Below are positions 312-1,007 of a stretch of 7,735 nt of DNA, in pieces (positions within the stretch are counted from its first letter, which is position 1; the number at the start of each line of letters is the position of its first letter). The notes beneath the pieces were generated by a model. The model was not told where the DNA came from. It was given only the letters and a program-made list of their open reading frames with translations, and ran no database searches. The translations under genes were made by a program, and so were the position numbers. The stretch is from a virus (taxonomy: Duplodnaviria > Heunggongvirae > Uroviricota > Caudoviricetes), in the IMG/VR virus record IMGVR_UViG_2713896783_000029. One strand, given 5' to 3'.

Positions 312-1007
312 ATGAAAGAGATGATTTCTGTCGATCATGAAATATCCATGAGTAGTCTGGATTTTCTGAATAACATTATTAATCCAGCCCGGGCAGAAGC
401 CGGAGAAGTCCCTCATGAACCGCGTAAGTTTCTTGCAAAAATTGAGGATGAGCTAGAGCTTGATGGAACCGGAAAAAAATTCCGGTTAAACAATAACCAG
501 ACAAGAACGGCATACTATGATCTGGATTTTGACCAGATGATGCTCGTTGGCATGAGGGAGTCAAAGGCCGTTCGTCGTTCTGTGCTGGCAAGACTCAAAG
601 CGATGCATGGTATTCAGATCCCCCGGACTTTACCTGAGGCGTTGCGATTTGCGGCAAAACTGGCTGAACAGAAAGCAGTGCTGGAAAATCAACTGGCAAT
701 AGCAGCGCCGAAGGCTGAATTTGTTGATAACTATGTTGAAGCATCTGGTCTGATGGGATTCCGGGAAGTTGCTAAGTTACTCGGTATCAAAGAAACCGAT
801 TTCCGGCTGTTTTTGTTGGAGAACGGAATAATGTATCGCCTCGCTGGAAAAATGACGCCTTACTCGCATCACCTGGATGCGGGGCGGTTTAGCGTGAAAA
901 CGGGCGAGGCGGGCAATGGTCATGCTTTTACGCAGGTTAAATTCACCCCAAAAGGTGTTCAGTGGATTGCTGGTCTGCTTGCTGCATGGAGAGCTACCGC
1001 AGCATGA
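312..1007 (+). CDS. Phage antirepressor-like protein, C-terminal KilA-C/ANT domain, N-terminal Rha/AntA-like region
   Basis: 231-aa ORF with SD aaaggaa 7-13 nt upstream of ATG 312. The C-terminal half (EFVDNYVEASGLMGFREVAKLLGIKETDFRLFLLENGIMYR...QVKFTPKGVQWIAGLL) matches the ANT/KilA-C signature as I recall it. Position between endolysin and Rz mirrors ant-like genes I recall in Stx-type lambdoid prophages. Confidence 0.8.
   Translation: MKEMISVDHEISMSSLDFLNNIINPARAEAGEVPHEPRKFLAKIEDELELDGTGKKFRLNNNQTRTAYYDLDFDQMMLVGMRESKAVRRSVLARLKAMHGIQIPRTLPEALRFAAKLAEQKAVLENQLAIAAPKAEFVDNYVEASGLMGFREVAKLLGIKETDFRLFLLENGIMYRLAGKMTPYSHHLDAGRFSVKTGEAGNGHAFTQVKFTPKGVQWIAGLLAAWRATAA

Follow-up and report, generated by a model that had tools for sequence, protein, structure and literature searches.

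A predicted two-fold leader RNA in front of the ant gene in the late operon of a Shiga toxin 1a-type lambdoid prophage and its relatives

The ant gene between the endolysin and spanin genes

The DNA analysed in this study (the window) is a stretch of 7,735 nucleotides (nt) from the IMG/VR record IMGVR_UViG_2713896783_000029, a virus of the Caudoviricetes, and represents the late region of an HK97-like lambdoid prophage of the Shiga toxin (Stx) 1a type. The end of the endolysin gene R is followed by a 273-nt spacer, an open reading frame (ORF) at positions 312-1007, two small ORFs (1004-1099 and 1102-1233), the spanin gene Rz and a gene encoding a lipoprotein with a TonB C-terminal (TonB_C) domain; the genes for an HNH endonuclease, TerS, TerL and a protease-capsid fusion come next. 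The ORF at 312-1007 is the ant gene. The spacer in front of it holds the element that is the main subject of this report, a widespread and unannotated leader RNA with two predicted folds and a long-range loop contact, which heads an exchangeable cassette of the late operon.

The ant gene (312-1007, + strand) starts with ATG and encodes 231 amino acids (aa). A preliminary description of this stretch had placed an ANT/KilA-C gene between the endolysin and Rz genes, and this was confirmed: residues 125-224 of the product matched PF03374 (E = 2.7e-28; score 98.9 bits, cutoff 25.3) over positions 1-106 of the 108-position profile. In the domain search that the description had proposed (ANT/KilA-C, AntA, Rha and Bro-N), ANT was the sole Pfam match of the protein, and the N-terminal domains AntA, Bro-N and Rha, as well as P22_AR_N (PF10547), were not found in it. 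Beyond ANT, it has none of the domains of P22 Ant, P1 Ant and AriS. The whole protein matched PHROG 63 ('anti-repressor Ant', E = 2.9e-58). There were 1363 homologues, with full-length relatives of 229-237 aa throughout Enterobacterales, and the ratio of nonsynonymous to synonymous substitution rates (dN/dS) of 0.05-0.17 indicated purifying selection. With an intact reading frame, a low dN/dS and full-length homologues in different genera, ant qualifies as a functional protein gene, and the idea of a decaying remnant was ruled out for the window copy on the same grounds. Copies that are truncated or split by IS1203 exist in other genomes.

The protein belongs to the Bro/KilA/Rha/Ant class of phage regulators. 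The ant genes of Stx phages have carried the label of antirepressor from the 933W genome record onwards, and for the window protein the term is, judging from the sequence, best taken as a family label and not as a demonstrated activity; keyword, locus-tag and literal-sequence searches of the literature found no functional study of ECs1214-type genes. The N-terminal half matched no Pfam family in a permissive scan up to E = 10, and a PDB sequence search, NCBIfam and PADLOC returned nothing significant for the protein. In the AlphaFold2 model (mean predicted local distance difference test score, pLDDT, of 75), residues 12-99 formed a predicted N-terminal unit of the order helix-helix-hairpin-helix-helix, followed by a long helix (107-146) and the ANT domain (150-230), which resembled a helix-turn-helix plus wing. 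No significant match to this model was found in the PDB with Foldseek (best E = 0.13), and the weak top matches were the winged-helix DNA binders RacA, TFE-alpha, PadR and Xis.

It is a serious possibility, somewhat short of an even chance, that the ant protein is not an antirepressor but damps RecA and the SOS response as Listeria AriS does, or acts as a winged-helix DNA-binding regulator or a factor in phage-phage competition. The ANT/KilAC domain of AriS alone inhibits the SOS response, and it is not known to bind a repressor (PMC9043618). The missing P22_AR_N, AntA, Bro-N and Rha domains, the helix-helix-hairpin units of the model, its winged-helix fold matches and the predicted DNA-binding or HNH nuclease domains of the other cargo classes behind the same leader point in this direction. 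However, the fold matches were not significant, and AriS, the product of a Gram-positive phage, differs in architecture. AriS-like proteins combine AntA, Bro-N or pRha with ANT/KilAC, whereas the window protein shares their C-terminal domain and none of the three N-terminal ones; gene context and host phylum differ as well.

The arrangement R-ant-Rz is itself already known, and ant is an ordinary gene that was annotated before. Near-identical DNA is present in Stx1a phages, Lys8385Vzw and phi-O153, where the gene is annotated as ant, and the same gene order is annotated in 933W, BP-4795, phi-O153, Sakai Sp5 and many Stx1a and Stx2a phages, in agreement with the earlier statement that it occurs in Stx-type lambdoid prophages. 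The late placement, which the preliminary description had regarded as an oddity, turned out to be usual. In six of the seven lineages sampled for the 231-aa family, ant is found within the lysis cassette or directly behind it, upstream of the terminase genes, and this slot is kept despite differing holins, terminases and endolysins (lysozyme, M15 peptidase, GH108). The late slot is therefore the rule for the family. Providencia was the sole sampled lineage with an early-operon copy, located between cII and O, and this homologue lacks the leader. A gap of 160-310 nt precedes ant in every late-slot case. When the gaps were aligned, approximately 170 nt upstream of the gene were conserved across genera, also in front of the unrelated 189-aa ant allele of BP-4795; ANT genes of the 231-aa type follow the module in prophages of Plesiomonas, Yersinia, Cronobacter, Salmonella and Enterobacter.

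Two mutually exclusive folds of the leader

Positions 140-330 of the window folded better than shuffled sequence (z-score of -5.1), and the core of the leader (207-303, + strand) was predicted to adopt two mutually exclusive folds. The branched Fold 1 consists of the helices P1 (207-213/285-291), P2 (CAGGA 215-219/UCCUG 275-279), P3 (222-232/256-268) and P4 (UAACCGG 234-240/CUGGUUA 248-254). Fold 2 is a rod; its 5' half (210-240) and its 3' half (267-303) are joined by helix R1, which includes CCUUU 210-214/AAAGG 299-303 and so involves the Shine-Dalgarno (SD) sequence of ant, helix R2 (GAGCCCUG 221-228/CAGGGUUC 284-291) and helix R3 (UAACCGG 234-240/CUGGUUA 267-273). The segment UAACCGG 234-240 has two alternative partners, the CTGGTTA repeat at 248-254 in Fold 1 and the one at 267-273 in Fold 2.

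Covariation was counted on a model-based alignment (A4) of 79 distinct rows. For the 27 pairs of Fold 1, 94.1% of the cells were paired (27-58% in slid controls) and 15 pairs had changed on both sides; for the 32 pairs of Fold 2, the corresponding values were 90.7% (37-53% in slid controls) and 18 pairs. Not one of 500 shuffles was as good as the observed alignment, for either fold and by any of five measures. The pair-keeping changes are illustrated by the A4 column pairs 79-194 (UA 64, CG 5, AU 2, GC 1), 81-192 (UA 59, GC 7) and 90-176 (UA 37, CG 18, UG 8). P1, P2, R2, R3 and the loop contact described below lie outside the model behind A4, and the four helices covary nevertheless. All P1 variants kept pairing (GAACC/GGTTC 59 times, GAGCC/GGCTC three times, the rest wobble-only), with one exception from a weak hit. 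A plain MAFFT alignment (A3) gave covariation in the same direction, and an automatic RNAalifold run on a crude first alignment returned a poor structure. Since the conserved structure contains abundant G-U pairs, which would be C-A on the other strand, the folded RNA is that of the + strand, and an antisense-strand RNA was ruled out.

The preliminary description had pointed to GGTTAACC and the CTGGTTA repeats within 220-290 as possible operators. These repeats do exist (248-254 and 267-273 for CTGGTTA), but they covary as alternative RNA partners of UAACCGG. A reading of them as operator or promoter elements was rejected, as no sigma-70 site and no LexA box were found and the G-U pairs are workable only in an RNA of the + strand.

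The sequence AUGA...UCAU of helix R1 (window 219-222 and 290-293; A4 columns 72-74 and 199-201) was nearly or fully invariant in the 79 sequences, while neighbouring pairs covaried, which suggests that something besides pairing may constrain it. Mini-ORFs of differing length begin at its invariant AUG (220-222) and lack SD spacing, and a leader peptide was judged unlikely by eye.

RNase III sites control translation in lambda, and the rod, with approximately 30 base pairs in R1-R3 and small internal loops, falls into the size class of RNase III substrates. It could chiefly be a processing site for this or another nuclease, at which cleavage either destroys the cargo mRNA or removes the anti-SD strand in the manner of the lambda N leader; control would then be exerted by RNA processing and stability without a reversible switch. 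We consider this improbable, since processing leaves the compensatory upkeep of the branched fold and of P1 unexplained.

No family of Rfam 15 matched the leader over 145-311 in the window (up to E = 1) or in seven related loci (up to E = 0.5), and the models for AgvB, AsxR, PasA/PasC, STnc100, isrJ, isrK and C4 gave no leader match. Identity with a known prophage small RNA (sRNA) was rejected also by position: AgvB and AsxR map to the moron site immediately 3' of pR' (AsxR to the 3' side of stx2B), PasA/PasC lie between the esterase gene and the holin gene, and the stretch from R to ant contains no AgvB, AsxR, PasA or PasC site. At the coordinates of the Sakai leader (Sp5; NC_002695, about 1,273,664-1,273,815), the supplements of Tree et al. 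(2014) list nothing. Keyword, locus-tag and literal-sequence searches, the coverage of which was incomplete so that an earlier description is possible, found no description of the leader in the literature. It is a candidate for a new Rfam family, and a covariance model has already been built.

A loop contact between hairpin P0 and segment K

The hairpin P0 (178-194, + strand; stem 178-183/189-194, loop CGCAC 184-188) precedes the core of the leader. It is predicted and covarying, with the stem variants GCGC/GCGC, GCGU/ACGC, GUGC/GCAC and AGCACA/UGUGCU. Its loop (C184-A189) is complementary to segment K (UGUGCG, 278-283, + strand), which lies outside the helices of both folds and with which it would form a kissing or pseudoknot contact. 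At least 11 covarying combinations of P0 loop and K were found among 76 sequences, and in a permutation test of the P0:K complementarity none of 2000 permutations reached the observed value. CCGCA/UGCGG was the most frequent code (33 sequences), followed by CGCAC/GUGCG (6), CCACA/UGUGG (4) and UCACAC/GUGUGA (3); rarer codes included UCUCAC/GUGAGA (2), CGCUC/GAGCG (2), UGCCC/GGGCA, CGCCC/GGGCG and others. The 933W/BP-4795 type carries CUCAC/GUGAG, whereas the window carries CGCAC/GUGCG. Cassettes arranged in tandem often differ in their P0:K code, but not always (loci L162 and L180).

These features would also suit a sensor (a riboswitch or a switch that responds to a protein or RNA) rather than a timer, and the architecture is compatible with a riboswitch. 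The conserved core or the P0:K contact would be bound by a small molecule, by a protein of the phage or host, or by an RNA acting in trans, which could be the P0-like hairpin of another cassette; binding would stabilise one fold, and translation of the cargo would follow a signal of a physiological or phage-phage kind. The complex conserved architecture (a pseudoknot-like contact, covarying helices and an SD-sequestering expression platform), the invariance of AUGA...UCAU amid covarying pairs, the single leader type that heads many cargo families in a regulon-like manner, the number of P0:K codes and their frequent difference in tandem copies, and the up to 10 leader copies per E. coli genome are all consistent with sensing, as is the analogous silent leader of Gifsy-1, which is opened by a trans-acting RNA (PMC4825925). 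On the other hand, the tandem codes at L162 and L180 are equal, the close kinship of the members may explain conserved 'unpaired' bases by shared ancestry, and a pulse of translation is already explained by prefix folding alone (see below). We regard a sensor as rather unlikely. The same doubtful standing applies to its fullest form, in which the module at 145-311 would be an undescribed class of pseudoknotted RNA sensors whose P0:K 'address code' and bistable core coordinate cargo translation among co-resident lambdoid prophages, Stx phages included. If this were true, the signal could be a metabolite, a molecule related to defence or the SOS response, a phage protein or the P0-like RNAs of sister cassettes, and there would be an RNA-level layer of prophage-prophage cross-talk.

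An exchangeable cassette with a 5' terminator

The cassette consists of an intrinsic terminator (145-176), P0 (178-194), the approximately 100-nt leader (207-303) and a cargo gene. The terminator-like hairpin (145-176, + strand; stem 145-154/160-169 with the core GGCACC/GGTGCC, followed by a T-rich tail) is the constant 5' boundary. Its stem sequences vary among phages, with hairpin and T-run retained; a strict terminator rule was passed by 55 of 66 unique leaders, and most of the others have imperfect stems. Instances of the module were collected by BLAST, two pattern scans and a covariance model (model R1), which gave 103 instances, 66-69 of them unique; the model itself produced 76 matches with E <= 1e-10 in 69 loci. 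A loose pattern scan of genome contigs returned mostly chance matches in unrelated phyla, and only its Enterobacterales matches were kept.

The cargo behind the module was diverse: it comprised ANT/KilAC, P22_AR_N with ORF11CD3 (the 933W ant), Phage_pRha, KilA-N (with or without ORF11CD3 or P63C), Bro-N and HNH_3 (with or without AP2), and one class had no Pfam match. Cargo alleles vary within the slot between R and Rz, two genes that are adjacent in lambda, and this variation is what is expected of a moron insertion. The ant genes of 933W, BP-4795, Sakai Sp5 (ECs1214) and phi-O153 occupy the same slot and are preceded by the same terminator, P0 and leader as in the window, with a covariance-model score of 99 bits in 933W and Sp5. 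The cargo of 933W and BP-4795 is a different protein of 189 aa with P22_AR_N (E = 1.4e-45) and ORF11CD3, whereas the 231-aa ANT/KilAC allele of the window is common to phi-O153 and Stx1a phages.

Among 79 unique neighbours upstream of the module, there were 31 spanin-like genes, 17 endolysin genes and 11 Q antiterminator genes. Every cassette relative sits in a Q-dependent operon, in the first part of the late operon, and in the Q-adjacent copies the module terminator is the first terminator downstream of a pR'-like promoter (TTGACT-18-TATGCT in locus L139). An isrJ-like short RNA lies between Q and the terminator of an intact leader at L162 and L188, which suggests that isrJ-type RNAs are short pR' transcripts ending at the cassette terminator.

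Tandem cassettes were found, for example, in phage ECP1, at the Plesiomonas locus L004 and at L139 and L185. Lys8385Vzw (L001, 4204-4931) carries a second full cassette with a terminator, P0, a 70-bit leader and Rha, exactly after the Rz stop codon. This cassette is absent from the window (compare position 1607), giving a clean presence/absence boundary. Comparative evidence establishes the predicted leader structure and the modularity of the cassette.

By blastn, the leader was found in 863 of 5426 complete E. coli genomes, approximately one in six, with a median of 3 and a maximum of 10 copies, the latter in enterohaemorrhagic E. coli (EHEC); no annotation lay beneath the leader match in any of the 30 E. 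coli RefSeq records listed, out of 863. The leader lies in the same Q-dependent transcript as the stx and lysis genes. A weak leader-like match (25.5 bits, E = 6e-5) at 1743-1889 of locus L002, upstream of a TerB-family gene and just after the Q-region tRNAs, may be a diverged relative. Two matches to the STnc100 sRNA above the gathering score were found at 677-872 and 3723-3925 of L139, a viral contig that also has two leader cassettes.

Shine-Dalgarno exposure and the proposed mode of expression

The SD sequence AAGGA (300-304, + strand) lies 7 nt before the ATG of ant. The rod is predicted to pair four of its five bases and the branched fold to leave most of it free; across 76 sequences, the predicted SD was likewise mostly paired in the rod state and mostly free in the branched fold. 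Constrained folding gave the state with the rod closing helix as the more stable one in 72 of the 76 sequences, by 4.8 kcal/mol on average, and the rod was the minimum-energy form of this state. In prefix folding, the branched fold persisted until the 3' strand of P1 had been made (to 292), and the rod took over after the next 5-12 nt. As predicted, the leader would have the two features of a translational switch, namely two exclusive covarying folds and an SD that is paired in one of them and free in the other.

No sigma-70-like promoter was found on the + strand of window positions 1-2400, no -10-like hexamer in 1-320, and no LexA box (CTGT-N8-ACAG) with at most one mismatch in 1-1300. With neither kind of site upstream, and with all relatives of the cassette in a Q-dependent operon, we infer that ant is expressed late.

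The best explanation of these observations as a whole, to which we assign a probability of roughly 0.6, is that a promoter-less exchangeable cassette has been inserted between R and Rz with ant as its cargo, and that ant is transcribed only late and has its translation gated by a switch. RNA polymerase would arrive at the cassette only via Q-antiterminated read-through from the late promoter, and ant would therefore be transcribed late and be silent in the lysogen. The branched fold (P1-P4, probably braced by the P0-loop:K contact) would leave the SD free; it is predicted to form first and to last until the final 10-15 nt of the leader are transcribed. The thermodynamically favoured rod would then pair CCUUU 210-214 with the SD (299-303) and close translation. 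The folded two-state leader thus probably decides whether the ant protein is made. The most likely outcome would be a short, limited pulse of protein from nascent late transcripts, or synthesis only while some factor holds the branched fold. A brief pulse would keep a potentially harmful DNA- or repressor-binding protein low. By homology, the protein may bind a repressor or another DNA-associated target late in infection.

The preliminary description had inferred from a strong SD that ant is expressed together with the lysis genes. The SD and its spacing were confirmed, but the SD is paired in the most stable predicted fold of a conserved bistable leader, and a terminator precedes this leader. 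Lambdoid phages carry conserved boundary sequences, and the conserved upstream region could in principle be a recombination 'linker' of this kind, in which case Ant would be made along with R and Rz and antirepress other resident prophages. The good SD and its spacing, the result of the sigma-70 scan, in which no independent promoter was found, and the presence of a genuine antirepressor, that of P1, among the ANT-domain proteins (cited in PMC9043618) accord with plain co-expression. However, DNA linkers yield no changes that keep RNA pairs, no G-U-only substitutions, no overlapping sets of covarying helices and no covarying loop contact, and the SD is paired in the predicted minimum-energy structure; we consider plain co-expression very unlikely. 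The SD-pairing leader explains why a 'strong SD' need not mean strong expression.

Several points weigh against the switch-gated cassette. A4 was fitted to P0, R1, P3 and P4, so that the counts for these helices are inflated, and the homologues all come from related Enterobacterales prophages, so that the shuffle controls overstate significance. The fold energies omit the P0:K contact, as ViennaRNA cannot score this pseudoknot. The promoter scan covered sigma-70 consensus sites only. IS1203 splits ant in O111 and other STEC (Shiga toxin-producing E. coli) genomes that are 100% identical to the window (L002, E. coli E2855, 6312-8320), and ant is therefore dispensable for the lysogen; the window copy itself is intact. 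The literature searches turned up no experimental paper on the 231-aa subfamily, and late transcription, occlusion of the SD in vivo and the kinetic window are predictions.

If the switch-gated cassette is correct, the leader would gate a class of genes (Ant, Rha, KilA-N, Bro-N, HNH) for which both timing and function are long-standing questions, and, as an RNA switch with predicted point mutations, it makes expression of the cargo testable. In STEC, which carry multiple prophages, the switch may be relevant to cross-induction between them, provided that repressors are the targets of the cargo proteins.

Comparison with known systems

The closest analogue in logic, which is not homologous, is the isrK-orf45-anrP region of Gifsy-1. 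There, terminator read-through downstream of a Q-like gene produces a bistable leader that is silent for translation. The leader is followed by an antirepressor-like gene and is opened by a trans-acting RNA (PMC4825925). We cite it as a precedent for the read-through and silent-leader model of ant. The window differs in that it has no coupled upstream ORF and that both pairing partners lie in cis, downstream of the terminator. The Rfam models for C4 antisense and isrK-type leaders of ant (RF01695, RF03163, RF01394) gave no match in the window or the seven related loci, whereas the same library found isrK, isrJ, C4 and c4-a1b1 in Gifsy-1, where the isrK region matches both C4 and c4-a1b1. Model R1 detected only a truncated leader remnant in Gifsy-1 (16.8 bits). 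At this place (L257, 33308-33480), the isrJ terminator is followed by the remnant, which comprises P0 and the first bases.

In the c4-icd-ant (immI) system of P1 and P7, hairpin loops pair with targets near the ribosome-binding site (RBS). The leader in the window resembles this mechanism, as the loop of a hairpin would pair with a target near the RBS. Leaders that sequester the RBS are also known from the read-through transcripts of T4 gene e and I-TevI, and the leader of the MS2 maturation gene is kinetically trapped. As in these cases, an mRNA structure that hides the RBS would limit a dispensable or toxic gene, and folding kinetics or the origin of the transcript would set the output, here by prediction; the cargo of the present leader includes HNH homing-endonuclease-like genes. 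Unlike the T4 and MS2 leaders, the present one is of unrelated sequence, conserves two full alternative folds together with a loop contact, and has no evident internal late promoter.

An antirepressor gene embedded in a lambdoid late operon has been described as the P22 immI 'ant moron' (PMC2629481). P22 ant, located between genes 16 and 9, is under the control of two repressors, Mnt and Arc, and of the antisense RNA sar, whereas the window has no small repressor ORFs next to ant and no sigma-70 promoter was found there. Antirepressors of the LexA-controlled type (Tum, Gifsy Gfo/Gft) are not indicated either, as no LexA box was found in window 1-1300. The definition of a moron for lambdoid phages is paraphrased in PMC2629481, and the term is attributed to Juhala et al. 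2000 (PMC4104026). The cassette is moron-like as extra DNA between two operon genes of a Q-dependent region that varies among relatives. A classical moron is usually expressed independently, whereas the cassette in the window has a 5' terminator and no promoter detected in the sigma-70-only scan.

Neighbouring genes and other features of the window

Upstream of the cassette, the 3' end of R (1-38, + strand) encodes the end of a lambda-type lysozyme (...ESALACWGIDR*) with a TAA stop codon at 36-38, and corresponds to a lysozyme of 177 aa in the annotation of Lys8385Vzw, E. coli E2855 and BP-4795. Downstream, the ATG of a small ORF of 31 aa (1004-1099, + strand) overlaps the ant stop codon (ATGA); its match to PHROG 6632 is weak (E = 1e-4), and it may or may not be a real gene. 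Within it, just 3' of the ant stop codon, positions 1013-1061 hold a perfect inverted repeat of 11 nt (ATAAAAACGGA/TCCGTTTTTAT, arms separated by 27 nt), which may mark the 3' end of the cassette. The second small ORF (1102-1233, + strand) encodes a hydrophobic protein of 43 aa (PHROG 4906, E = 6.6e-24; RefSeq WP_001280923.1), which is probably a membrane protein. Its position just before Rz is conserved, with annotated small ORFs in BP-4795 (ORF50) and Sakai (ECs_5707), and it could be an unrecognised component of the lysis cassette.

The Rz spanin gene (1245-1606, + strand; stop codon 1604-1606), mapped from RefSeq/GenBank annotation, flanks the inserted cassette on its downstream side. Two collapsed N-masks (1258-1307 and 1521-1570) break up the sequence of Rz; a third run lies at 2529-2578, and each of the three consists of exactly 50 N. 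Genomes that are otherwise 100% identical are approximately 96 nt longer across Rz, so the masks stand for longer stretches. Rz, Rz1 and a minus-strand YlcI/YnfO-like gene are unreadable through the N runs in the window. The lipoprotein with a TonB C-terminal domain is encoded downstream of Rz at 1930-2271, where 933W has bor; the PHROG label of its family, 'Rz-like spanin', appears to be mislabelled. A near-consensus sigma-70-promoter-like site on the minus strand (TTCACA-16-TATAAT, 11/12, at 2099-2072) lies antisense within this TonB-like gene.

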